Of a DNA stretch of 64,000 nt, positions 7,468 through 42,946 are shown piece after piece. Position numbers and translations under genes: made by a program. The notes under the pieces were generated by a model. That model had not been told where the DNA came from. It worked only from the letters and a program-made list of their open reading frames with translations, and ran no database searches. Source of the DNA: a phage; sequence record PV357171.2; one strand, written 5' to 3'. The number at the start of each line of letters is the position of its first letter. Position 1 is the stretch's first letter.

Positions 7468-7506
7468 GGATGGGATACTACTCAGTTGGTATCCCATTCC
7501 TGCATT
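7468..7506 (+). terminator. stem-loop after terminase gene (GGGATAC...GTATCCC)
   Basis: Inverted repeat followed by T-rich tract. Confidence 0.5.
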
Positions 7507-7629
7507 TTAAAATCCCCTTTACAAATTCGATATGATTATGTATACTATATTCATTGATCGGGAGAACTTCTCCCATAATAGAACGTAAACAAGAAAAATT
7601 AATGCTCTACATGAGGTGTAGGAGATTCT

Positions 7630-8268
7630 ATGGGTCGACAAAAGCTAACAATAAAAGATATAAATACTAGATTAGCTGATCGTGGAATCCAAATTGTCGG
7701 TGAATATGTAAACCAGCGTACAAAAACAGTATTTAGATGCCAGAGAGCACACGTTTGGGAAGCAACACCACATTCTGTACTTCATATGAGGAGAGGTTGT
7801 CCACACTGCTCCAATAATACAATATCGTTAGATGAAGTTAGTAACAGAATATCTAATATAGGGTATACTCTGTTAAGCAGCTATACTAATGCTAAAACAA
7901 AACTACATCTACGTTGCAATAATGGGCATGACTGTTTCATTACCCTAGATGGATTGACTCAAGGTAAAAGATGTCCTTATTGTTCTCTTAAATGGGAAAA
8001 TGGCGGATTCCTCTATATCATGTCCTCCTGCAGAGGTACTAAAGTAGGCATAAGCTTATACCCTGAGAAGCGGCTGAACGAGGTTAAAAGAGAATCTGGA
8101 TTTTCTGACATATACTTGTTCACCGTGTATTATCTGCCGGATAGAGAGACTGCTTTAGATTTAGAGAAGGAAGTTCACAGAAAATATTATAATAAAAACT
8201 GTGGGTTTTCTAATTTTACAGGAAGTACGGAATTTTTTAATGTTGCTCCTGAAGATGCTTTCAAATAG
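7630..8268 (+). CDS. putative homing endonuclease, T5orf172/GIY-YIG-like domain with duplicated N-terminal zinc-ribbon modules
   Basis: Two repeats ending CPHC and CPYC; C-terminal GGFLYIM...GTKVGIS...R...E pattern; inserted between terminase and portal. Confidence 0.6.
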   Translation: MGRQKLTIKDINTRLADRGIQIVGEYVNQRTKTVFRCQRAHVWEATPHSVLHMRRGCPHCSNNTISLDEVSNRISNIGYTLLSSYTNAKTKLHLRCNNGHDCFITLDGLTQGKRCPYCSLKWENGGFLYIMSSCRGTKVGISLYPEKRLNEVKRESGFSDIYLFTVYYLPDRETALDLEKEVHRKYYNKNCGFSNFTGSTEFFNVAPEDAFK

Positions 8269-8494
8269 GGAAGCATTCTACAAGAAATATGAGCATGAGT
8301 TAGTTAGGGACGTGGTAACATTGTGCCAGCACCATCACCAATTATTACATAAGGTTTACACAAAAGAACCTCCTTTATTTTCTGCTAATAAGCAAAAAGT
8401 GTGGGTTCAAAAGCAGAAAGACAAATTACAGAATCCTCAAGAAAAGACACAAGTCAAGACTGAAACAAAATCAGGATTCGCAAGGTTCTTATAA
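8255..8494 (+). CDS. hypothetical small protein with His-rich HNH-like motif (LCQHHHQLLH)
   Basis: Track ORF 8201..8494, start trimmed to internal ATG; stop overlaps portal ATG (TAATG). Confidence 0.3.
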   Translation: MLSNREAFYKKYEHELVRDVVTLCQHHHQLLHKVYTKEPPLFSANKQKVWVQKQKDKLQNPQEKTQVKTETKSGFARFL

Positions 8495-9594
8495 TGGGTT
8501 TTAAAAGCTGGATTACTGAAAAGCTAAATCCGGGTCAACGTATTATAAGAGACATGGAACCAGTTAGTCATCGCACTAACCGTAAGCCTTTTACCACTGG
8601 ACAAGCCTACAGTAAAATTGAGATTCTCAATAGAACTGCTAATATGGTTATAGATAGTGCGGCGGAGTGTTCTTATACTACTCTCTTAAATGTACGACCT
8701 AATCCATTCATGGATATAAGCACATTCCGTAGACTTGTAGTCACTGACCTACTTTTTGAAGGTTGTGCATACATCTATTGGGATGGCACATCGCTTTACC
8801 ATGTCCCTGCTGCACTGATGCAAGTAGAGGCAGATGCCAATAAGTTTATCAAAAAATTTATATTTAATAACCAGATAGACTATCGCGTAGATGAGATTAT
8901 CTTTATAAAAGATAACAGTTACGTGTGTGGCACAAATTCTCAAATTTCTGGACAATCTCGCGTTGCTACTGTTATTGACTCTCTTGAGAAGCGTTCTAAG
9001 ATGCTTAACTTTAAAGAGAAATTCCTCGATAACGGAACTGTGATTGGTCTTATTCTTGAGACGGATGAAATCCTGAACAAGAAATTGCGTGAGCGTAAAC
9101 AAGAAGAATTACAACTAGATTATAATCCTAGTACTGGTCAGTCCTCTGTCCTGATAGACTTTAAGGAAGACATCGAAGGATTTAATAAATCCATCTGTCT
9201 AGCCTTTGGTGTTCCGCAAGTGCTACTTGATGGCGGTAATAATGCGAACATTCGACCAAACATCGAATTGTTCTACTATATGACTATCATTCCTATGCTG
9301 AACAAGCTGACTAGTTCTCTTACTTTCTTTTTTGGTTATAAGATTACTCCTAATACTAAGGAAGTAGCTGCATTAACACCAGATAAAGAAGCTGAGGCTA
9401 AACATTTAACCTCATTGGTTAATAATGGTATTATGACTGGTAACGAGGCTCGTTTAGAGCTGAACCTTGAACCTTTAGATGATGAGCAGATGAATAAGAT
9501 TCGTATTCCTGCTAACGTTGCTGGTTCTGCAACAGGTGTATCTGGTCAAGAAGGTGGTAGACCTCAAGGTTCCACCGAGGGAGATAAAGAATGA
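8494..9594 (+). CDS. portal protein
   Basis: 366 aa; position between terminase and prohead protease; translationally coupled to neighbours. Confidence 0.65.
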   Translation: MGFKSWITEKLNPGQRIIRDMEPVSHRTNRKPFTTGQAYSKIEILNRTANMVIDSAAECSYTTLLNVRPNPFMDISTFRRLVVTDLLFEGCAYIYWDGTSLYHVPAALMQVEADANKFIKKFIFNNQIDYRVDEIIFIKDNSYVCGTNSQISGQSRVATVIDSLEKRSKMLNFKEKFLDNGTVIGLILETDEILNKKLRERKQEELQLDYNPSTGQSSVLIDFKEDIEGFNKSICLAFGVPQVLLDGGNNANIRPNIELFYYMTIIPMLNKLTSSLTFFFGYKITPNTKEVAALTPDKEAEAKHLTSLVNNGIMTGNEARLELNLEPLDDEQMNKIRIPANVAGSATGVSGQEGGRPQGSTEGDKE

Positions 9595-10085
9595 TTGATT
9601 ATAATGGTCTAAAGACCATTTTTGGTGAAAAACTGCCAGAATCTCATATCTTCTTTGCTACGGTTGCTGCGCATAAATATGTTCCTAGCTATGCTTTTCT
9701 GCGTAGAGAACTAGGGCTTTCATCTGCGCATACTAACCGTAAAGTATGGAAGAAATTTGTAGAGGCTTATGGTGAAGCAGTTCCTCCGGCCCCACCGGCC
9801 CCACCATTAACTCTTTCTAAAGATTTAACTGCTAGCATGTCAGTTGAAGAGGGAGCAGCATTAACACTTTCTGTTACTGCAACTGGTGGTACTGGTCCAT
9901 ATACTTATGCATGGACTAAAGATGGTTCTCCTATTCCGGATGCTTCAGGAGCTACCTATACTAAACCTACAGCAGCAGCTGAGGATGCCGGCTCTTATAA
10001 AGTAACTGTAACAGATAGTAAGCAAGTAAGTAAGGATTCTACTGCATGTGCTGTGACAGTTAATCCTACTGTTCCTGGAGGCTAA
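9591..10085 (+). CDS. capsid decoration protein with C-terminal Ig-like domain (pb10-like)
   Basis: 164 aa; PPAPPAPP linker then Ig-like segment YTYAWTKDG...SYKVTVTD. Confidence 0.55.
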   Translation: MIDYNGLKTIFGEKLPESHIFFATVAAHKYVPSYAFLRRELGLSSAHTNRKVWKKFVEAYGEAVPPAPPAPPLTLSKDLTASMSVEEGAALTLSVTATGGTGPYTYAWTKDGSPIPDASGATYTKPTAAAEDAGSYKVTVTDSKQVSKDSTACAVTVNPTVPGG

Positions 10086-10088
10086 TAA

Positions 10089-10721
10089 ATGACACAAGCT
10101 GCTATTGACTATAACAAGTTAAAATCAGCACCCGTTCATTTAGATGCTTATATTAAATCTATTGATAGCGAATCCAAAGAGGGCGTTGTAAAAATCCGTG
10201 GATTCGCTAATACAATTAGTAAAGATCGCGCTGGTGATGTAATTCCTGCTTCTGCGTGGAAAACATCTAATGCACTTGCTAACTATATGAAAAACCCGAT
10301 TATTCTTTTCGGACACGATCATCGTCGTCCAATCGGCAAGTGTATTGATCTTAACCCTACTGAAATGGGTCTCGAAATCGAATGCGAGATCTATGAAAGT
10401 TCTGACCCGGCTATCTTTTCTCTAATTAAAAACGGTGTACTGAAAACTTTTAGTATCGGATTCCGCTGCCTAGATGCAGAGTGGGATGAAGCTACTGATA
10501 TATTTATTATTAAAGATTTAGAACTATACGAAGTTTCGGTAGTTTCTGTACCTTGTAATCAGGACTCAACGTTCAATCTCGCTAAGAGTATGAATGGTCA
10601 TGATTATACTGAATGGCGTAAATCTTTTACTGCAATAAGTTCTAAAGCTGTCCCAGCTCAAGAACGTAATCTTTCTGAACTAGAAAAACTTGCGATAGCT
10701 TTAGGCTACGTTAAAGAATAA
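10089..10721 (+). CDS. prohead maturation protease (HK97 family)
   Basis: 210 aa; position before major capsid gene; conserved His-containing segment FGHDHRRPIG. Confidence 0.7.
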   Translation: MTQAAIDYNKLKSAPVHLDAYIKSIDSESKEGVVKIRGFANTISKDRAGDVIPASAWKTSNALANYMKNPIILFGHDHRRPIGKCIDLNPTEMGLEIECEIYESSDPAIFSLIKNGVLKTFSIGFRCLDAEWDEATDIFIIKDLELYEVSVVSVPCNQDSTFNLAKSMNGHDYTEWRKSFTAISSKAVPAQERNLSELEKLAIALGYVKE

Positions 10722-10738
10722 CGGAGAATTATTTAAAA

Positions 10739-11296
10739 ATGACTATTGATATTAATAAGCTGAAAGAAGAACTTGGTCTGGGTGATCTGGCTAAATCTCT
10801 GGAAGGTCTGACCGCTGCTCAGAAAGCTCAGGAAGCTGAACGTATGCGTAAAGAGCAGGAAGAAAAAGAACTGGCTCGTATGAATGACTTGGTTTCTAAA
10901 GCAGTTGGCGAAGATCGTCAGAAACTGGAACAAGCTCTGGAACTGGTTAAGTCCCTGGATGAAAAATCTAAGAAGAGCGCAGAACTGTTTGCACAGACTG
11001 TAGAAAAGCAGCAGGAAACTATTGTTGGTCTCCAGGACGAAATCAAATCTCTGCTGGCAGCTCGTGAAGGGCGTTCCTTCGTCGGTGATAGTGTGGCTAA
11101 AGCACTGTACGGTACTCAAGAAAACTTTGAAGACGAAGTGGAGAAACTGGTTCTTCTGTCCTACGTGATGGAAAAAGGTGTATTTGATACCGAACATGGT
11201 CAGAGACACTTGAAAGCTGTAAACCAGTCTTCTTCTGTAGAAGTTTCTAGTGAAAGCTATGAAACTATTTTCTCCCAGCGTATCATCCGTGACTGA
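10739..11296 (+). CDS. major capsid protein, N-terminal scaffolding (delta) domain; frame terminates early
   Basis: Coiled-coil-rich 185 aa; followed in +1 frame by HK97-fold body. Confidence 0.7.
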   Translation: MTIDINKLKEELGLGDLAKSLEGLTAAQKAQEAERMRKEQEEKELARMNDLVSKAVGEDRQKLEQALELVKSLDEKSKKSAELFAQTVEKQQETIVGLQDEIKSLLAAREGRSFVGDSVAKALYGTQENFEDEVEKLVLLSYVMEKGVFDTEHGQRHLKAVNQSSSVEVSSESYETIFSQRIIRD

Positions 11297-11972
11297 GGTT
11301 AAAGGTGCTCTGACTGAAATCCACTTCAGTACTTACAAACTGGCTGCTAAGTCCTTCATTACTGATGAAACTGAAGAAGATGCAATCTTCTCCCTGCTGC
11401 CGCTGCTGCGTAAACGTCTGATTGAAGCACACGCTGTTTCTATCGAAGAAGCGTTTATGACTGGTGATGGTACTGGTAAACCTAAAGGTCTATTGACTCT
11501 TGCTAGCGAAGATGGTGCTAAAGTTACTACTGAAGCTAAAGCTGATGGTTCTGTTCTGGTAACTGCTAAGACTATCTCTAAACTGCGTCGTAAACTGGGC
11601 CGTCATGGTTTGAAACTGTCCAAACTGGTACTGATTGTATCTATGGATGCTTACTACGATCTGCTGGAAGATGAAGAATGGCAGGATGTTGCTCAAGTTG
11701 GTAATGATGCTGTTAAACTGCAGGGTCAGGTTGGTCGTATTTATGGTCTGCCGGTTGTAGTTTCTGAATACTTCCCAGCTAAAGCGGTTGATAAAGAGTT
11801 CGCAGTTATTGTTTATAAAGATAACTTCGTAATGCCACGTCAGCGTGCTGTTACTGTTGAACGTGAGCGTCAAGCTGGTAAACAGCGTGATGCATACTAC
11901 GTTACTCAGCGTGTTAACCTGCAACGTTACTTTAGTAATGGCGTTGTATCTGGTGCTTACGCTGCATCTTAA
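11250..11972 (+). CDS. major capsid protein, HK97-fold body (in +1 frame relative to delta domain)
   Basis: 240 aa; strong terminator downstream; continuation of capsid gene. Confidence 0.7.
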   Translation: MKAMKLFSPSVSSVTEVKGALTEIHFSTYKLAAKSFITDETEEDAIFSLLPLLRKRLIEAHAVSIEEAFMTGDGTGKPKGLLTLASEDGAKVTTEAKADGSVLVTAKTISKLRRKLGRHGLKLSKLVLIVSMDAYYDLLEDEEWQDVAQVGNDAVKLQGQVGRIYGLPVVVSEYFPAKAVDKEFAVIVYKDNFVMPRQRAVTVERERQAGKQRDAYYVTQRVNLQRYFSNGVVSGAYAAS

Positions 11973-11991
11973 TACAGGCTTTTCAGCCGAT

Positions 11992-12018
11992 AAGGAGAGC
12001 TTCGGCTCTCCTTTTTTA
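11992..12018 (+). terminator. rho-independent terminator after capsid gene (AAGGAGAGC-TTCG-GCTCTCCTT + T-tract)
   Basis: Perfect 9-bp stem, tetraloop, U-run. Confidence 0.8.
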
Positions 12019-12031
12019 TTGGGAAAAATAA

Positions 12032-12544
12032 ATGCAAATAATCACAGCTGAAGACTATAGATTATATGGCGGGTTAAAACGACCTGAACTAGAATCTGGA
12101 GTAGAGATGATGATTACTGCTGCCAATGCGCTGATTACTAGCCTTTTAGGTATGGATGATGCTGATGCGGTAGACCAGTTAATCAATACAAAACCTACTC
12201 GTAAAAAATACTTTTTAAGTTCTCCCTCGGCTACTTCAGTAACCAAAATGACTATTAACGACAAGGAGATAGATCCTGAACAGTATAAGTTGTATTCTGA
12301 TGGGGTTATACTTCTTAAATTTAACCCTCCAGAAGGTTATATGGACGTAGAATATACACAAGGTGGATTTAATCCAATTCCTGAAGATCTCAAACTTGCA
12401 GCATGTATGTTAGTAGATCATTGGCACAAACAGGATTATCGCCAAGCTAAAACAATTGGCGGAGAAACAGTTACTTTTAATAATACTAAGTCTGGTATTC
12501 CAGAGCATATTCGTACTATTATTGAAGTTTACAGGAGAGTATAA
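12032..12544 (+). CDS. head completion / head-tail adaptor protein (p144-like)
   Basis: 170 aa; synteny after capsid gene. Confidence 0.45.
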   Translation: MQIITAEDYRLYGGLKRPELESGVEMMITAANALITSLLGMDDADAVDQLINTKPTRKKYFLSSPSATSVTKMTINDKEIDPEQYKLYSDGVILLKFNPPEGYMDVEYTQGGFNPIPEDLKLAACMLVDHWHKQDYRQAKTIGGETVTFNNTKSGIPEHIRTIIEVYRRV

Positions 12545-21426: not shown

Positions 21427-24272
21427 AAAAAATATTAGATAGTGCTAGAAACTACTTAAAAAATAATAGCAGAATAAAAACTGCTAGTCTAATTTCTCTA
21501 GAATTACCCGGCTCTACTGGTACTAGTACTGCTTTTATTTACTTAACTGACTATTTTAGAGATGTACTATATAATGGTATTTTGTACCAGGCCGGTAAAG
21601 TTAAGTCTATTAGCACACATAAACAAAATAGAGATTTATCTATTGGCAGCCTATCTTTTACTATTACAGGTACAGCGCAGGATGAAGTACTGAAATTAGT
21701 GCAGAATGGTGTGTCTTTTTTAGATAGATTAGTATCAATTCACCAAGCAATTATTACAGAAGATGGTTCTATTTTACCTGTAGACCCAGACACAAATGGG
21801 CCTTTATTATACTTTAGAGGTAGAATTACTGGTGGAGGTATTAAGGATAATATTAGCACTTCGGGAGTTGGAACCTCCACAATTACTTGGAATTGTTCTA
21901 ACCAATTCTATGATTTTGATAGGGTTAATGGTAGATTTACTGATGATGCTTCTCATAGAGGGCTTGAAGTTGTAGCAGGGCAATTAGTTCCATCTAACGG
22001 GGCTAAAAGACTTGAGTATCAAGAAGATTATGGGTTCTTTCATGCCAATAAAAGTATCTCTATTCTAGCAAAATATCAGGTACAGGAAGAAAGATACAAG
22101 CTAAAGTCTAAGAAAAAGCTATTTGGCCTATCTAGAAGTTATAGTCTTAAAAAGTATTATGAGACTGTTACTAAAGAAGTAGATATAGATTTTAACCTTG
22201 CTGCTAAGTATCTACCAGTAGTTTATGGTGTACAGAAAATACCGGGAATACCTATTTTTGCGGATACGGAATTACACAATCCTAATATAGTTTACGTAGT
22301 ATATGCTTTTGCTGAAGGAGAGATAGACGGTTTTCTTGACTTTTCCTTTGGGGATAACCCTATGATTTGTATGGACTCTAATGATAGCTCTGCTAGAACC
22401 TGTTTCGGTGTTAAAAAAGTAGCCGGAGACACCATGCAAAGAATAGCATCAGGAACACCTTCTAGTAGTCCTTCCGTGCATGGGCAGGAGTATAAGTATA
22501 ATGATGGGAATGGTGACATAAGAATTTGGACGTATCATGGAAAACCTGACCAAACGGCTTCTGAAGTACTAGTAGATATAGCTAAAGAACGTGGGTTCTA
22601 CCTTCAGAATATGAATGGCAATGGACCGGAGTACTGGGATGCTAGGTATAAACTACTAGATACTGCATACGCAGTGGTGCGCTTCACTATTAATGAAAAT
22701 AGGACTGAGATTCCTGAAGTTAGTGCTGAAATTCAAGGTAAAAAAGTAAAAGTCTATCATTCTGATGGTAGAGTAACTGCTAATAGTACTAGTTTAAATG
22801 GTATTTGGCAAACACTTGATTACTTAACCTCTGATAGATATGGCGCTAATATTACCATTGATCAGTTCCCCCTTCAGCAATTAATACAGGAAGCAGATAT
22901 TTTAGATATTATAGATGAATCCTATCAGGTATCTTGGCAGCCATATTGGAGATACGTTGGGTGGACTGATCCACTAGCAGAAAATAGACAAATAGTACAA
23001 ATGAATACTATTCTGGATACATCTGAATCAGTATTTAAAAATGTGCAAGGTTTGTTAGAGTCCTATGGTGGGGCTATTAACAATTTATCTGGCCAGTATA
23101 GGGTTACTGTAGAAAAATACTCTAATACTCCATTAGAGATTAATTTTCTAGACACTTACGGTGATTTGGAGCTATCTGATACTACCGGTAGAAATAAATT
23201 CAACTCAGTTCAAGCATCTATTGTGGATCCCGCCCTTAGCTGGAAAACTAATTCCATTACCTTCTATAATTCCAAGTATAAGGAACAGGACAAAAACCTG
23301 GATAAAAAACTACAATTATCTTTTGCAAATATAACTAACTACTATACTGCTAGAAGTTTTGCAGACAGAGAACTTAAGAAATCTAGGTATTCTAGAACCC
23401 TCTCATTCTCTTTACCATATCAATTCATTGGTATTGAGCCTAACGATGCTATTGCATTTACATACGACCGTTACGGATGGGATAAGAAGTACTTTTTAGT
23501 AGATGAAGTAGAAAACTCTAGAGAAGGAAAGATAAATGTTACTCTACAGGAATATGGTGAAGATGTATTTATCAACTCTGATCAAGTAGATAATAGTGGT
23601 AATGATATACCAGATATTAGTAACAACGTTCTTCCTCCTAGGGATTTTAAATATACTCCTACACCCGGTGGTTTAGTTGGTTCTATAGGAAAAAATGGTG
23701 AGTTATCTTGGCTTCCAAGCTTAACTAATAACGTAGTTTATTATTCTATCGTACATTCCGGTCATGCTGAGCCTTATACTGTGCAGCAACTAGAAACAAA
23801 TCCCAATGAACGCATGATCCAAGAGATAATTGGAGAGCCTGCAGGCTTAGCGATATTTGAAATAAGAGCTGTGGATATAAACGGTAGAAGAAGTTCTCCA
23901 GTAACATTATCTATAGAACTTAACTCTGCTAAAAACCTAAGTGTAGTATCTAATTTTAGGGTAACTAATACGGCTTCCGGGGATGTAACTGAATTTGTAG
24001 GCCCAGATGTAAAACTAGCTTGGGATAGGATACCGGAAGAAGATATAATAGAAAGTATATTCTATACTCTGGAAATCTATGATTCCCAGAATAGAATGCT
24101 AAGAAGTGTACGTATTGAAAATCAGTATACTTATGACTATTTATTAATGTATAATAAGGCAGATTTTGCTCTTCATAACAGTGATGCTCTAGGAATCAAT
24201 AGAAAACTATATTTTCGTATTAGAGCAGAAGGAGATGATGGGGAACAGTCTGTGGAGTGGGCATCCATTTAA
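21423..24272 (+). CDS. baseplate hub protein (pb3-like)
   Basis: 949 aa; synteny. Confidence 0.7.
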   Translation: MKKILDSARNYLKNNSRIKTASLISLELPGSTGTSTAFIYLTDYFRDVLYNGILYQAGKVKSISTHKQNRDLSIGSLSFTITGTAQDEVLKLVQNGVSFLDRLVSIHQAIITEDGSILPVDPDTNGPLLYFRGRITGGGIKDNISTSGVGTSTITWNCSNQFYDFDRVNGRFTDDASHRGLEVVAGQLVPSNGAKRLEYQEDYGFFHANKSISILAKYQVQEERYKLKSKKKLFGLSRSYSLKKYYETVTKEVDIDFNLAAKYLPVVYGVQKIPGIPIFADTELHNPNIVYVVYAFAEGEIDGFLDFSFGDNPMICMDSNDSSARTCFGVKKVAGDTMQRIASGTPSSSPSVHGQEYKYNDGNGDIRIWTYHGKPDQTASEVLVDIAKERGFYLQNMNGNGPEYWDARYKLLDTAYAVVRFTINENRTEIPEVSAEIQGKKVKVYHSDGRVTANSTSLNGIWQTLDYLTSDRYGANITIDQFPLQQLIQEADILDIIDESYQVSWQPYWRYVGWTDPLAENRQIVQMNTILDTSESVFKNVQGLLESYGGAINNLSGQYRVTVEKYSNTPLEINFLDTYGDLELSDTTGRNKFNSVQASIVDPALSWKTNSITFYNSKYKEQDKNLDKKLQLSFANITNYYTARSFADRELKKSRYSRTLSFSLPYQFIGIEPNDAIAFTYDRYGWDKKYFLVDEVENSREGKINVTLQEYGEDVFINSDQVDNSGNDIPDISNNVLPPRDFKYTPTPGGLVGSIGKNGELSWLPSLTNNVVYYSIVHSGHAEPYTVQQLETNPNERMIQEIIGEPAGLAIFEIRAVDINGRRSSPVTLSIELNSAKNLSVVSNFRVTNTASGDVTEFVGPDVKLAWDRIPEEDIIESIFYTLEIYDSQNRMLRSVRIENQYTYDYLLMYNKADFALHNSDALGINRKLYFRIRAEGDDGEQSVEWASI

Positions 24273-29493: not shown

Positions 29494-31128
29494 ATGTGCG
29501 TCCTATTGGGTCCACCCCTCTTGCGGGGGATCCTGTTGGGGGACTATGATGCCGCAACTAAACGTTGGGTAGAGAATAAGATTAACACTGGTACAGTTGG
29601 ACCCACTATGAATGGTGTTATGAACTACGGTGTTGGTGATTTCCACCTTCGAGATAGCCGTGCATACATTCAACCATACGAGGTGGTTTCTGATGGGCAG
29701 CTCCTTAATAGGGCTGACTGGCCGGAGCTTTGGTCTTACGCTCAAATGGTGGGGGCAATTAGTGATGCAAAATGGTTAGCAGATCCACATGAGAGAGGCA
29801 AATACTCAGTTGGTGATGGTCGAACAACCTTCCGTGTTCCTGATCGAAATGGTGTTCAATCTGGCTCCTTTAAAGGTCTTTTTGGACGTGGTGATAGTGG
29901 GGTAACTTCTAACCTCGGTAGAACGAATGAGTCTTCTGCTCCTAACTTAACTGCCTACTTCAGAACCGTAACTGATACGTCAATTATTGAAAATGATGCT
30001 GCAAGTGGTGCTGGATACCCATCCGAGGCATACCAAAAATATGCTCGGCTAAGCGCTATTAAAGAAGAGGCTGCACTAGAAATATACCCACGTAGATGGA
30101 ACTTTGATGCTTCTCGCCAATCTAGTGTATATGGGCGTTATGGTAATACAGATGAGATTACACCTAATAACTTCACCGGTGTATGGGTAATCCGGGCGTC
30201 TGGTGGTTTCGTTGCAGCAAATACATCTTGGAGTGTTATTAACGGCGATGCGACCAGACCAACAGACAGCACAAGAGTTGAATCAGGGAAAGTAAGCGTA
30301 GAATATAAGATTGGAACGGCTATTGAGGCGCAGGGTAAAGTCTATACTGCTGCAACAATGGGCGGGACATATTCTACCCAGCTCTCTGTTAAAAATGCCA
30401 CTACGGGTAAAGAGAAAGATATCAGCGTCACAGAAGATGGTGATCTGTGGTCTGACCGCTTTAAGGGTAGATTTGGCACCCGTATGGCTTGGAGTCAGAC
30501 CGGCTGGGTCTATGGCACATTTTCCCAAGCCAACCAAGCCATCGGTAACGACTACAGTTTCTACAGTATTCTTAGCGGCTCCCAAAGTTCAAGCTCGGGC
30601 TATAAAACTCATACCCATATTGGTCAAATCCATAATGACAATGGTTCATTTGCTGATAGCTGCTGGCATGTTGCAGGTGATGATGATAATAAATATGGTG
30701 TACGTTTAAAAATTCAGCCTAATAATAATAGTATTTATTTCTATTCTTGGTGGCCTAATGGTGCAGCAACCTATACTTTGCAATTAAATGCTATATCTGA
30801 TTCTCGCTTAAAGCATGATATTAAGGCTATAGATGCAACTAAATCCATCGAAATATTAAAAGGATTGGAATTCCAATCCTTTGTATATAATAACGATGAA
30901 AAATCTCGTATCCGACGTGGGGTTATTGCTCAGCAAGTAGAGACTATAGAACCACTTTATGTAAAAACTAGAAGATTTTATAATAATGATGGGGTAGAGC
31001 AAGAACAGAAGGAATTAGATACGACTCCAATGCTTCTTGACACTATGCATGTCGTGCAAGAACTTATAAAACGGATTGAATCTTTGGAAGAAGAACTCAA
31101 GCAATTAAGAGCAAACCTAGTGCAATAA
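29494..31128 (+). CDS. L-shaped tail fibre protein B (LtfB-like) with C-terminal intramolecular chaperone (peptidase S74-type) domain
   Basis: C-terminal SDSRLKHDIK...coiled-coil chaperone signature; start codon assignment uncertain. Confidence 0.6.
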   Translation: MCVLLGPPLLRGILLGDYDAATKRWVENKINTGTVGPTMNGVMNYGVGDFHLRDSRAYIQPYEVVSDGQLLNRADWPELWSYAQMVGAISDAKWLADPHERGKYSVGDGRTTFRVPDRNGVQSGSFKGLFGRGDSGVTSNLGRTNESSAPNLTAYFRTVTDTSIIENDAASGAGYPSEAYQKYARLSAIKEEAALEIYPRRWNFDASRQSSVYGRYGNTDEITPNNFTGVWVIRASGGFVAANTSWSVINGDATRPTDSTRVESGKVSVEYKIGTAIEAQGKVYTAATMGGTYSTQLSVKNATTGKEKDISVTEDGDLWSDRFKGRFGTRMAWSQTGWVYGTFSQANQAIGNDYSFYSILSGSQSSSSGYKTHTHIGQIHNDNGSFADSCWHVAGDDDNKYGVRLKIQPNNNSIYFYSWWPNGAATYTLQLNAISDSRLKHDIKAIDATKSIEILKGLEFQSFVYNNDEKSRIRRGVIAQQVETIEPLYVKTRRFYNNDGVEQEQKELDTTPMLLDTMHVVQELIKRIESLEEELKQLRANLVQ

Positions 31129-32506: not shown

Positions 32507-32988
32507 TATTTAATTAAGTCCTCAACAGATGCATGATGTAGCCACGGCTCAAATAAACCAATTACGATTTCCATGTCTTTCTTATTTAACACCATATGGG
32601 TACGACTCATTAAGTTGTCAACCATCGGGTCTGAGCTATCCAAAGCTATTAACCACTGTCCTCTGTCTTTTTTGAATATTAATGCAGGTTTGGAGTTCAT
32701 CTGCTCACCTTCACGTGAGCACTGCTGCCACCACTTCTCTAGGGTGGATTCACCAACATTAAATAAATTACTTGATAATGCGTCGTCTTTATAATGTTTT
32801 ACTTCAAAACAGTACTTACTGATTTTGCCTGTTTGTGGTGGAAGGTAGATGTCACCTTTCAGTCCGTGGCTCTGGCCAAAAGCACCAGAGCCAGGCACTC
32901 TCTCCCACTCTAGCTTTGTTCGCTCTCTAAGAATATCTCTTACTTGATACTCAGCTCTTTTTCCTTTTTCTCTACTATCTACAGCCAT
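32506..32988 (-). CDS. hypothetical protein, possible PD-(D/E)xK nuclease (D14-like)
   Basis: 160 aa; D...EVK pattern (GDIYL...FEVKH). Confidence 0.35.
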   Translation of the reverse strand: MAVDSREKGKRAEYQVRDILRERTKLEWERVPGSGAFGQSHGLKGDIYLPPQTGKISKYCFEVKHYKDDALSSNLFNVGESTLEKWWQQCSREGEQMNSKPALIFKKDRGQWLIALDSSDPMVDNLMSRTHMVLNKKDMEIVIGLFEPWLHHASVEDLIK

Positions 32989-33479
32989 TATTCCTCTGGG
33001 AAATTTAATACTGCGAAATCTCCGAAGTATTCTTTTGCTTTAATATCATAGGCTTTTGCCGCAATTTCTTCAGTTGGGTAGCTACCAATATACTCAGTTT
33101 TTCTGCTGAAAGGATTGCCAATTCTAGCGATATAGCTCCTACCATTAAAATGGACTCCTCTAACTGTATTTGGGCTAGACCTATTAGCCATATTCTGGGA
33201 TCTAGAACAGTCTCTCAGATTTTCTATTCTATTATTACTAACATCTCTATCTATATGGTCTATTTCCTTTGGCCAATAATTATTGAACATAAAAAATATC
33301 AGTCTATGAACATACTCTTGCCTCTGGAACAAAGTAACCCTTAGATACCCGGCCTTATTAGGAGTACCTGCAGGTACTCCTGCCTTCATCCTACCCCTAG
33401 TCTGCTTATTTATTAGCAGTCCATCCCTATAATTATATCTATTCCAAAGGTATTCTACAGTAACTCTTGGATCAGCCAT
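32988..33479 (-). CDS. HNH homing endonuclease with C-terminal AP2-like DNA-binding domain
   Basis: HIDRDVSNNRIENL HNH core; C-terminal ...EEIAAKAYD... AP2-like. Confidence 0.7.
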   Translation of the reverse strand: MADPRVTVEYLWNRYNYRDGLLINKQTRGRMKAGVPAGTPNKAGYLRVTLFQRQEYVHRLIFFMFNNYWPKEIDHIDRDVSNNRIENLRDCSRSQNMANRSSPNTVRGVHFNGRSYIARIGNPFSRKTEYIGSYPTEEIAAKAYDIKAKEYFGDFAVLNFPEE

Positions 33480-33482
33480 GTT

Positions 33483-35321
33483 TTATTCTAAGTAGGAAAA
33501 TCCTTCTGCATCTTTTTTGACAGTAATCTTATGGGCTAATGGATGCGTATGCCCATGAGAAACAATGATAGAATTCAGACTATCTTCCTCATTTAATAAT
33601 TCAACGAGAGTATCAAGTCCTTTCGTATCAATAAAGCTAATAACTTCGTCAAGGAACAGAAGATTAATATTAACTTTACTAATAGATGTTAACAGCATTC
33701 TAATAGCTAACAGAGTTGCTAGGTTAATTCTACTCTGCTGACCAGTAGAGCAGTTCTCCATGCTGGTACGGTTTCCGTCATTGAAGATTACTACTTGTAA
33801 TTTAGTTTCATCAAGTTCAAATCCAAGTGCGAACTTACCACCAGTCATAATAGAAAGATATTTATTAATCAATTCCTCAAATACTTTCACACTATGTTCT
33901 AGTTTATATCCTACCAGATTTTTCAATGCAGCGATCAGAATATCAAGATCAGCAACAGCTTCTGATACTCCATCCAGTTTGGACGTTATCTCAGACATTT
34001 CTGCCTCAGCTTTCTCAATCTGTTCTAATTTCGCTTTATATTTTGCATTGGCTAATTCGACATTTGCATTATGCTCTTTGGCAATTGCAACTTTAGAACG
34101 TCCATCAGCGATTTCCTGTTCTAATTGTCGGATTTGCACCTGTAGGATTTGCACATTGAGTTCTTCAAAAGAAGCGTCACTCATTGAATTTTTGAACTCG
34201 TCTCTAGCTGCTACTGCCTTATCTAAAGCATCTTTAGCTCTAGTATACACAGTGTACTCGACTTGTTCTTTCTTCAACTGCTCCAATGTAGCTTCAAGAG
34301 ATTGTTTCTCTTTAAACATAGGATCATATTCTGTTCTAGCCATATCCATTGCTTTTTGAGCAGCAGTTGTATCAAGATGCGTACCACAAGTAGGACATTC
34401 AGTATTTGAAGCCTCTTGCTTAAACTTCTGATAACGTTTCTTGACTTCTCCCGCACGTGAGGTAACAATCGTTAAGTCACGCGTAACACTTGAGATCTCT
34501 TCAGATTGGTCAGTGGGCGCAGGCAAATTTTTGAAAGGCTCGAAAGATTGTTCGGCAACTTGTACAGCTTTGTCCAAATTACGCAATTTAGTAATATTAG
34601 CCTCTTGAGACTTGGCTAATGCCGCCTTAATTTTCGATTCAGTAAGTTCTTGCGCTAATGGTTCTTCATCAAACTCGGGCACTTCTACTGGTTCTTGCAA
34701 AGTTCCCAAGTTATTCTTTCCATTAAGGATTTTCGTAATTACAGCCATTTGGCCCTGCAAATTATTTAAGGTATTTGCTATTTCTTTACGGTCAGCCTTA
34801 ATAGTTTCCGACATTTCTTTGTACTGTTCTTGGTTGAACAAGTTAACAAGAAAAGCCTTACGTGTTGCATCTGTTGCTTTTAGAAAGTCTAGATTGGAAC
34901 CCACTGATTGATAAATTAGTTTGGTGAATGTTTGGAAGTCACCGCCCATAATCTCCTCAATCCTCTTGTATGTTTGGGTTGCCGTGTGCCCACTAATATC
35001 TTCCCCATTCTTAATAAGAGTTACTTTAGCAGTTGACTTAACTACTTTATGCAATTCATACTCATCTTCATCTTTTGAGAAGTAAGCGTGCATATCATAC
35101 TCTTTTTTCGGAGAAGACCAAGAGAACAGAGCATCTTTCTTAATACCACGTGAGTTCTTATTATAGAACAGCTCTTCTATAACCGTGGCGATGGTAGATT
35201 TCCCTAGCCCATTGCCACCAATTAGTTGAGTAACTGGATTCTTATCGAAATGAATTACGATGTCCTTACCGTAAGACATAACGTTACTAAATTTTAGTGT
35301 CTTAATTGTAATCTTTGACAT
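33483..35321 (-). CDS. SbcC/Rad50-like ATPase (D13-like); start trimmed to ATG at 35321
   Basis: Walker A GGNGLGKST, long coiled coil, CxxC zinc hook, C-terminal signature/Walker B. Confidence 0.7.
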   Translation of the reverse strand: MSKITIKTLKFSNVMSYGKDIVIHFDKNPVTQLIGGNGLGKSTIATVIEELFYNKNSRGIKKDALFSWSSPKKEYDMHAYFSKDEDEYELHKVVKSTAKVTLIKNGEDISGHTATQTYKRIEEIMGGDFQTFTKLIYQSVGSNLDFLKATDATRKAFLVNLFNQEQYKEMSETIKADRKEIANTLNNLQGQMAVITKILNGKNNLGTLQEPVEVPEFDEEPLAQELTESKIKAALAKSQEANITKLRNLDKAVQVAEQSFEPFKNLPAPTDQSEEISSVTRDLTIVTSRAGEVKKRYQKFKQEASNTECPTCGTHLDTTAAQKAMDMARTEYDPMFKEKQSLEATLEQLKKEQVEYTVYTRAKDALDKAVAARDEFKNSMSDASFEELNVQILQVQIRQLEQEIADGRSKVAIAKEHNANVELANAKYKAKLEQIEKAEAEMSEITSKLDGVSEAVADLDILIAALKNLVGYKLEHSVKVFEELINKYLSIMTGGKFALGFELDETKLQVVIFNDGNRTSMENCSTGQQSRINLATLLAIRMLLTSISKVNINLLFLDEVISFIDTKGLDTLVELLNEEDSLNSIIVSHGHTHPLAHKITVKKDAEGFSYLE

Positions 35322-41993: not shown

Positions 41994-42055
41994 ATTTAAT
42001 CTCCTCTTGGTAAGTAAGTATAACTTCAGTGTTTCTTCTCTAACTTACCAATATA

Positions 42056-42946
42056 TTATACCAAATCTTTAAGCGATTCAGCAACTAAAATTTCAATACG
42101 TTTTGCTAACATATCAATTTCATCTTTGTTTAAATCACCCGGATCTTTGCCTTCGGGCAGAAGAAAGTTAGCAACTACAGGTGTTAAACGCGTTTTTGTA
42201 CGAATTAACTTGGCCAATGCTTGTGCAGCTTTATTACCAGAAGCATCATTATCTAGTAAGATAACAACAACTTTTACACCGGCAATAATATAAGGACTGA
42301 ACTTATCTGCAATGTTATCCGAAGTAAACTGATGTGTACCAAAGCAGCAAGAAGCATAGTCTATACCATTATCCTCTAGGTTCAGCATATCAAAGATACC
42401 TTCAACTAGAATAAGAACTGGAGTATTATATCGTACAGGGAAAATCGGTGGTGAAACTTGTTTTGGTTTTACTAAGTATTTAGGAGGGGCAGAACTGTTT
42501 ATAGAACGACCCAAAAATAGGATATTGCGTCCAACAGCATCTGTGATTGGGAATACAATTCTGCCTTCCCAGTCTGCTTGATGTTGGAAAGCAAAATATT
42601 TCTTCAAGGTCTTAGAACTTATACCTCGGAAATCACCTTCGAAAAGGCAAGCAGATTCAGGAATTGCAAGATTCGTTGATCCATTCCTAATCTCTGAAAT
42701 CTTTTTACGTACTTGCGATAGTCTTGGGGACTGTCGGTACTGAGTCTCATTAAAATAATGGTAAATGCTCGGTATACCTTTACCGAAGCCACAACTCAAG
42801 CAGTGCATAATACCTGTTTCAGGATCAATACGCAAACTTGGGTGTTTATCGTCATGATCTGGATTGAGACAACAGATGAGGATGTCCCCACCTGTGTCTT
42901 TATATTCAATGCCTTTCAGATCAAGTAGTTCTGTTATTCTACTCAT
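42056..42946 (-). CDS. DNA primase (zinc-binding plus Toprim)
   Basis: CxxC...HCLSCG zinc motif; Toprim-like LVEGIFDM. Confidence 0.8.
   Translation of the reverse strand: MSRITELLDLKGIEYKDTGGDILICCLNPDHDDKHPSLRIDPETGIMHCLSCGFGKGIPSIYHYFNETQYRQSPRLSQVRKKISEIRNGSTNLAIPESACLFEGDFRGISSKTLKKYFAFQHQADWEGRIVFPITDAVGRNILFLGRSINSSAPPKYLVKPKQVSPPIFPVRYNTPVLILVEGIFDMLNLEDNGIDYASCCFGTHQFTSDNIADKFSPYIIAGVKVVVILLDNDASGNKAAQALAKLIRTKTRLTPVVANFLLPEGKDPGDLNKDEIDMLAKRIEILVAESLKDLV

Follow-up and report, generated by a model that had tools for sequence, protein, structure and literature searches.

A small open reading frame before the portal gene of a T5-like phage genome is very probably the 3' remnant of the nicking endonuclease gene sciA

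Between a gene for a T5orf172-type endonuclease and the portal gene of a phage genome (record PV357171.2) lies a short open reading frame that encodes a cluster of histidines. We asked whether this frame is a gene in its own right, the rest of another gene or no coding sequence at all. The analysis covered a stretch of 64,000 nucleotides of the record, referred to here as the window. According to the ORF listing the frame comprises 97 codons on the plus strand, with a GTG start codon at 8201 and a TAA stop codon at 8492–8494. Base A8494 is common to this stop codon and to the portal ATG (8494–8496), giving TAATG, and from 8201 to 8268 the ORF overlaps the 3' end of the T5orf172-like gene in a different frame. 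An earlier reading of the sequence alone (the sequence-only reading) had described the ORF, its TAATG junction and its overlap in this way, and listing and sequence agree with it on all three. The translation includes HELVRDVVTLCQHHHQLLH and ...YEHELVRDVVTLCQHHHQLLH..., in which the C-terminal part of an HNH motif had been suspected; a remnant of a degraded endonuclease, a small packaging-associated HNH protein and a noncoding stretch had been offered as explanations. Coordinates of the features are collected in Table 1.

Table 1. Features of the window that are discussed in the text
Feature	Position	Strand	Description
Terminator-like hairpin (7468–7499) and promoter-like site (7518–7546)	7468..7546	+	consensus matches only; hairpin after terL
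T5orf172/MUG113-type free-standing homing-endonuclease gene	7630..8268	+	212 aa versus 224 aa in relatives
ORF as first noted	8201..8494	+	composite: 18 out-of-frame T5orf172 codons, junction ATG, 78 sciA codons
Deletion junction	8256..8258	.	238 nt of all relatives replaced by the single base G8257; no microhomology
sciA remnant proper	8258..8494	+	very probably codons 68–145 and TAA of the T5 nicking endonuclease gene
Portal gene	8494..9594	+	366 aa versus 403–405 aa in relatives; Phage_portal E = 8.5e-39
Candidate SciA target site, GTGGGCGCAGGC	34514..34525	+	orthologue of the T5 RefSeq 'major DNA single-chain interruption' in gene D13

The DNA of the region shows 95–97% identity with that of T5-like phages (Tequintavirus, Epseptimavirus; family Demerecviridae), and its genes follow each other in the order receptor-binding protein, terS, terL, T5orf172 gene, small gene, portal, decoration protein, protease and major capsid. 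In the relatives the place between the T5orf172 gene and the portal gene is occupied by a 438-nt gene for a 145-aa protein, T5.153 in phage T5, which is annotated as 'nicking endonuclease', 'nicking site-specific endonuclease', 'putative HNHc nuclease' or 'hypothetical protein'. Residues 19–97 of the ORF are identical to residues 67–145 of T5.153 at 76 of 79 positions (96%) and match residues 70–148 of the PDB chains 9QGX_A/9QGV_A ('Nicking endonuclease') with E = 1.4e-48; on the strength of these two matches the ORF is well beyond chance. Residues 68–145 of the ancestral protein are conserved with 97% identity to T5 and 100% identity to phage EH1. The PHROG profile phrog_3497 also matches the ORF (E = 3.6e-35), over profile positions 58–135 only, and homology to the SciA family (PF26848, PHROG 3497) is found in the C-terminal part alone. 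The locus is orthologous to that of T5 sciA: the ORF follows terL and the T5orf172 homing-endonuclease gene, which may be present or absent at this place, and its stop codon overlaps the portal ATG. We regard the ORF as very probably the 3' remnant of sciA (T5.153), the nicking endonuclease gene of T5. No result speaks against this assignment. We class the ORF as a fragment of SciA and assign it to no HNH family by itself.

The intact gene is the T5 nickase SciA, as indicated by the matches to the SciA structures, the assignment to PF26848 and the genetics of sciA and sciB, late genes that are known to cause the localized single-chain interruptions in the DNA of T5 (PMC3517423). Major nick sites of T5 share the sequence R/GCGCRGG, and nick-less T5 mutants are viable (PMC3517423). 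The T5 protein is recorded as gene T5.153 / T5p149 (YP_006981.1; PDB 9QGV and 9QGX; Pfam PF26848, Phage_T5_Nicking_endo; PHROG 3497). A profile of the family retrieved two sequences only from the PDB, both 'Nicking endonuclease' chains with E = 1.6e-68, and the precomputed Pfam assignment of the intact protein is PF26848, Phage_T5_Nicking_endo; NCBIfam gave no match for either the intact or the truncated protein. The two entries, released on 2026-03-25, are titled 'SciA(H42Q) / SciA(H42A) endonuclease from Escherichia phage T5 in complex with 10 bp DNA (GCGC sequence ...)'. Both chains differ from the wild type at His42 (LELHQYH for H42Q, LELHAYH for H42A), which was mutated in the crystal structures, presumably to prevent cleavage of the DNA. 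An AlphaFold (AF2) model of an intact homologue (pLDDT 85.6) superposes on 9qgv_A with a TM score of 0.98. Family and function of SciA are already known, and its structure is solved. In T5-like phages (Demerecviridae) sciA is a conserved late gene found between terL and portal, whether or not the T5orf172 gene intervenes, and its product SciA is the site-specific nicking endonuclease that introduces the single-strand interruptions at GCGC-containing sites of virion DNA.

Conservation of the frame among relatives, which the sequence-only reading had suggested examining, is ample. The gene occurs in 900 phage records with hosts including Escherichia, Salmonella, Klebsiella, Vibrio, Proteus and others, and among the matches listed from these records every alignment begins at residue 1. 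Contigs carrying a TerL identical to that of the window all (6/6) have an intact 145-aa sciA, a portal gene of 403–405 aa and a 458-aa capsid gene. Near-identical SciA sequences are also filed under assemblies of Brucella melitensis, Enterococcus faecalis, Shigella sonnei and Salmonella, most likely as T5-like phage contamination of bacterial sequencing projects.

Comparison with the relatives accounts for the make-up of the ORF, which is not an independent small gene. Its residues 1–18 are the T5orf172 homing-endonuclease gene read out of frame, codon 19 is an ATG (8255–8257) made at a deletion junction, and residues 20–97 correspond to residues 68–145 of the ancestral protein; ancestral coding sequence is found at 8258–8491 only. 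Relative to KS_S14 (LC788706.1) a stretch of 238 nt is exchanged for the single base G8257, a net loss of 237 nt, with no microhomology at the junction. The breakpoint 8256/8258 was found in 10/10 relatives compared base by base (alignment with EH1 and 3sent1; BLAST against ten), and a query of 1,201 nt around the ORF corresponds to 1,438 nt in two pieces in every listed relative, i.e. to 237 extra bases. The T5orf172 gene loses its final 15 codons and its stop codon, and sciA its Shine-Dalgarno sequence (GGAGG), its ATG and codons 1–67. As a result of the deletion the final 15 residues of the T5orf172 protein, IVIFLSSFGLEDYGH, are replaced by AFK, and the new G8257 completes the ATG in the sciA frame. 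The retained DNA at 8258–8679 is 100% identical to EH1, so the truncation is either very recent or non-biological. The idea of a degraded endonuclease remnant was thus essentially right; what the identity to EH1 over 8258–8679 corrects is the picture of decay, since the ORF is a clean truncation of the known gene sciA/T5.153 and not an eroded relic.

We searched for further occurrences of the truncated form. A 27-mer spanning the junction had no match in viral (IMG/VR), genome (GTDB) or metagenome (JGI) contigs, nor did a window-specific 46-mer of the left flank in IMG/VR, GTDB and JGI metagenomes. None of the matches listed by megablast against phage records crosses the junction in one piece, and exact-sequence look-up did not find the truncated proteins among about 15 billion sequences. 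Within the window a search for the deleted pieces at another place or for a second copy of sciA returned chance matches only. One tblastn match (E = 0.57), considered as a second sciA, lies inside the D13/SbcC-like gene and was rejected.

The neighbouring T5orf172 gene is itself variable. Its 212-aa product contains MUG113, T5orf172 and treble-clef zinc finger domains and is classed by PHROGs as endonuclease or homing endonuclease. The gene is present in 2/6 of the contigs with identical TerL and missing from 4/6, which identifies it as a presence/absence insertion just upstream of sciA, with a cassette of about 7555–8257; where the cassette is absent, sciA starts 115 nt after terL. A free-standing endonuclease gene of the HNH_3 type (163 aa; Pfam E = 2.3e-14) lies on the minus strand of the window at 32988–33479, where it adjoins the D13 SbcC-like gene at a place with no sequence in KS_S14. 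It is probably another mobile homing-endonuclease insertion.

We then considered which parts of SciA are kept. Residues invariant across 46 homologues include C29, C32, E39, H41, H42, R71, C90, H93, H94 and H98, together with N4, R9 and R16-D17-G18 near the N-terminus. These follow the pattern CxxC-x6-E-x-HH ... C-x2-HH-x3-H, of which the CxxC ... C-x2-H part suggests a structural zinc site. In the AF2 model of the intact homologue a strand at 38–42 with the HH pair at its end is followed by helices at 46–84, a strand at 86–90, a helix at 91–101 bearing HHxxxH and a long helix at 107–125; as modelled, the intact protein forms a beta-beta-alpha finger into which helices are inserted. The order strand, strand, helix is that expected of HNH / His-Me finger nucleases (HNH_2 PF13391, AI2M-like_HNH PF21368, PHROG 8048), but SciA has about 43 residues of helices between the strands, and the ORF retains only the second strand and the helix. 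Lost from the window are C29, C32, E39, H41, H42 and the first strand of the beta-beta-alpha-metal finger; kept are Cys90, His93, His94, His98, the beta2 strand, the beta-beta-alpha helix and the C-terminal helix. Unlike T5, the window lacks codons 1–67 with their invariant residues, and with them the full-length architecture of about 145 aa, the native start codon, the ribosome-binding site and a complete beta-beta-alpha-metal site, the first strand and H41/H42 of this core being absent. The remnant lacks half of the presumed Cys/His metal-binding cluster as well as the histidine that was mutated for the DNA complexes. Loss of H42 predicts that there is no nicking activity and, with the first strand, the CxxC pair and His42 gone, the product of the remnant, if made at all, should be unable to nick DNA.

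The HNH question was followed with profile searches. The ORF has no HNH match in Pfam; an SPX match (E = 0.004; 17.7 bits versus a cut-off of 27.8) over the Lys/Gln-rich tail is noise, and a Dus match (E = 0.14) was rejected as well. Intact proteins reach E = 0.31–0.51 with HNH_2, marginal HNH matches occur in 2–6 of the 46 homologues, and AI2M-like_HNH is found in 6 of the 46 with a marginal best E of 0.041. The Pfam test proposed by the sequence-only reading fails to discriminate, as neither the ORF nor the intact 145-aa protein is significant in the local Pfam copy used for HNH scoring, a copy that does not include PF26848. The profile phrog_8048 'HNH endonuclease' matches residues 25–99 of the intact protein with E = 2.4e-7. 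Foldseek with the intact model found nothing significant except SciA itself, matches to Cap5 HNH effectors being non-significant. The case for HNH superfamily membership of SciA is thin, consisting of weak profile matches, one PHROG match and the pattern of motif and secondary structure. The HNH-like pattern itself had been recognised correctly as the C-terminal part of such a motif, while profile evidence for it is scant, the ORF having no HNH match.

Against this background the readings that assign the ORF another nature can be weighed. The position between terminase and portal genes recalls the small HNH packaging proteins found near these genes in HK97-like cos phages, and HNH nickases beside terminase genes are a known theme in phages: those of cos phages (N.phiGamma of Bacillus phage gamma and relatives) are small, site- and strand-specific enzymes whose genes lie beside the packaging genes (PMC3592412). 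However, no sequence relationship of these nickases to SciA was detected, the internal genome nicks made by SciA are dispensable in T5, and the likeness to HK97 gp74-like proteins is one of gene position only, the viable nick-less T5 mutants arguing against an essential packaging factor (PMC3517423). What the relatives encode at this place is a 145-aa nickase, and the ORF is its C-terminal half, has no HNH profile match and is devoid of the half with the CxxC pair and the catalytic histidine. An independent packaging protein of this kind is extremely improbable, and the reading is effectively refuted. To our knowledge SciA has not been described as a terminase cofactor for end formation. Equally remote is a chance open frame in a non-coding spacer with no coding ancestry. 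The missing Pfam HNH match and a sub-threshold SPX match as the sole Pfam result would fit such a frame, but a solved protein matched at E = 1.4e-48, a homologous frame in 900 phage records and Pfam and PHROG models of its own refute it; the ORF does not belong to the noncoding sequence.

A further possibility is that a catalytically dead C-terminal fragment of SciA, 79–84 aa long and started from ATG 8255 or ATG 8240, has acquired a separate function. It might occupy GCGC sites without cutting them, or it might, through translational coupling, sustain the flow of ribosomes to the portal start that overlaps its stop codon (TAATG). The ATG 8255 made by the junction is in frame and precedes the T5orf172 stop codon by 11 nt, a spacing similar to the 8 nt of the wild-type overlap, and given this similarity some coupled translation of a 79-aa fragment may occur. 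Such a fragment would keep the alpha helix as well as the long helix near the C-terminus, two elements of high confidence in the model, and its stop codon is overlapped by the portal ATG. ATG 8240, however, has an AGGA 16 nt upstream and ATG 8255 only an abutting GAAG, the native GGAGG being deleted; an in-frame ATG at the junction is expected in about 1 of 12 cases by chance, the portal gene keeps a separate AAGG, 8 nt ahead of its start codon, and the truncated form was found nowhere else in the protein and contig collections, with no sign of selection. We consider a functional fragment very unlikely. We infer that what is left of sciA is a dead pseudogene fragment and that, as neither ATG has a good Shine-Dalgarno sequence, little or none of it is translated. 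The hairpin and promoter-like site between terL and the T5orf172 gene are likely transcription signals for the homing-endonuclease gene and for the remnant and the portal gene behind it; given their position, passive transcription of the remnant together with the portal gene is probable.

We also looked at target sites of the nickase. The candidate site in D13 (Table 1) has as its T5 counterpart GTGGGCGCGGGC. RGCGCRGG has three matches in the window, all on the plus strand, at 21674–21681, at 30327–30334 and from 34516 within the candidate site; this number is not above chance, since 30 of 100 shuffles reach three. At least one candidate nickase substrate site is thus conserved while the gene is truncated, a combination that fits a very recent loss or an artefact.

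The sciA deletion has company. Four clean deletions specific to the window fall within 8.2–11.3 kb, three of them following that in sciA within 3 kb. The portal gene has lost 60 nt at 8679/8680, which removes VGDKYNIVTYANGVKTKTLD, and 57 nt at 9154/9155, which removes about 19 residues around LDGGMKAKPYSQISSFKD; both deletions are in-frame and have the same coordinates relative to all ten relatives. The fourth, of about 142 nt at 11294/11295, throws the gene for the major capsid protein pb8, which has 458 aa in relatives, out of frame, with the same coordinates relative to the eight relatives whose fetched sequence reaches that point. Capsid residues 1–185 are now encoded in one frame and about 221–458 in another (ORFs 10739–11296, 185 codons, and 11250–11972, 240 codons). 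As the major capsid gene is essential, the genome should be non-viable as written. Over the remainder of the window only ordinary mosaic replacements and whole-gene indels were seen.

Short repeats are typical of deletions that arise by slipped mispairing. Slipped mispairing between direct repeats was considered for the four deletions and rejected, as none of the junctions has usable microhomology; loss of an XbaI fragment was rejected as well, no junction reconstructing a religated site. The frameshift in the capsid gene and the lack of short repeats at any of the four junctions lead us to lean towards an artefact of assembly or of the consensus, or else a genome that is chimeric or defective, as the probable source of the sciA deletion. 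That the 237-nt deletion is real, and the phage either a T5-like phage that is sciA-null by nature or a defective variant that propagates with the aid of helpers, seems to us unlikely, if well short of far-fetched. Were the deletion biological, the packaged DNA would be free of nicks, as it is in T5 sci mutants, which are viable (PMC3517423). The virion DNA of such a phage would retain the target sites but show none of the classic single-strand interruptions, and the phage would serve as a natural sciA knockout for asking what the T5 nicks are for. In a bolder version of this reading, the 79-aa C-terminal fragment would be made from the junction ATG and would bind GCGC sites with no cutting.

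With SciA known and solved, and with laboratory nick-less T5 mutants already at hand, the scientific weight of the finding is small. Its practical use lies in annotation and in quality control. The proper label for the ORF is truncated sciA pseudogene, not new small HNH protein, and four unique clean deletions between 8.2 and 11.3 kb, one of them breaking the major capsid gene, call for caution about the assembly before biological conclusions are drawn.

The segments between the four breakpoints differ in their closest relatives, namely EH1 (100%), OQ291034 (98.7%), a Logan contig (97.6%) and an ENA contig (94.4%), and over the 5 kb upstream KS_S14 is closest with 95.6%. The differing relatives over 8258–12500 could reflect mosaicism of the ordinary kind, or else an assembly that is a chimera from a mixed T5-like population. 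At about 42054–42065 the window is missing 375–387 nt of KS_S14, approximately one small hypothetical gene (KSS14E_1050); unlike the intragenic deletions described above, this gap looks like an ordinary whole-gene indel.
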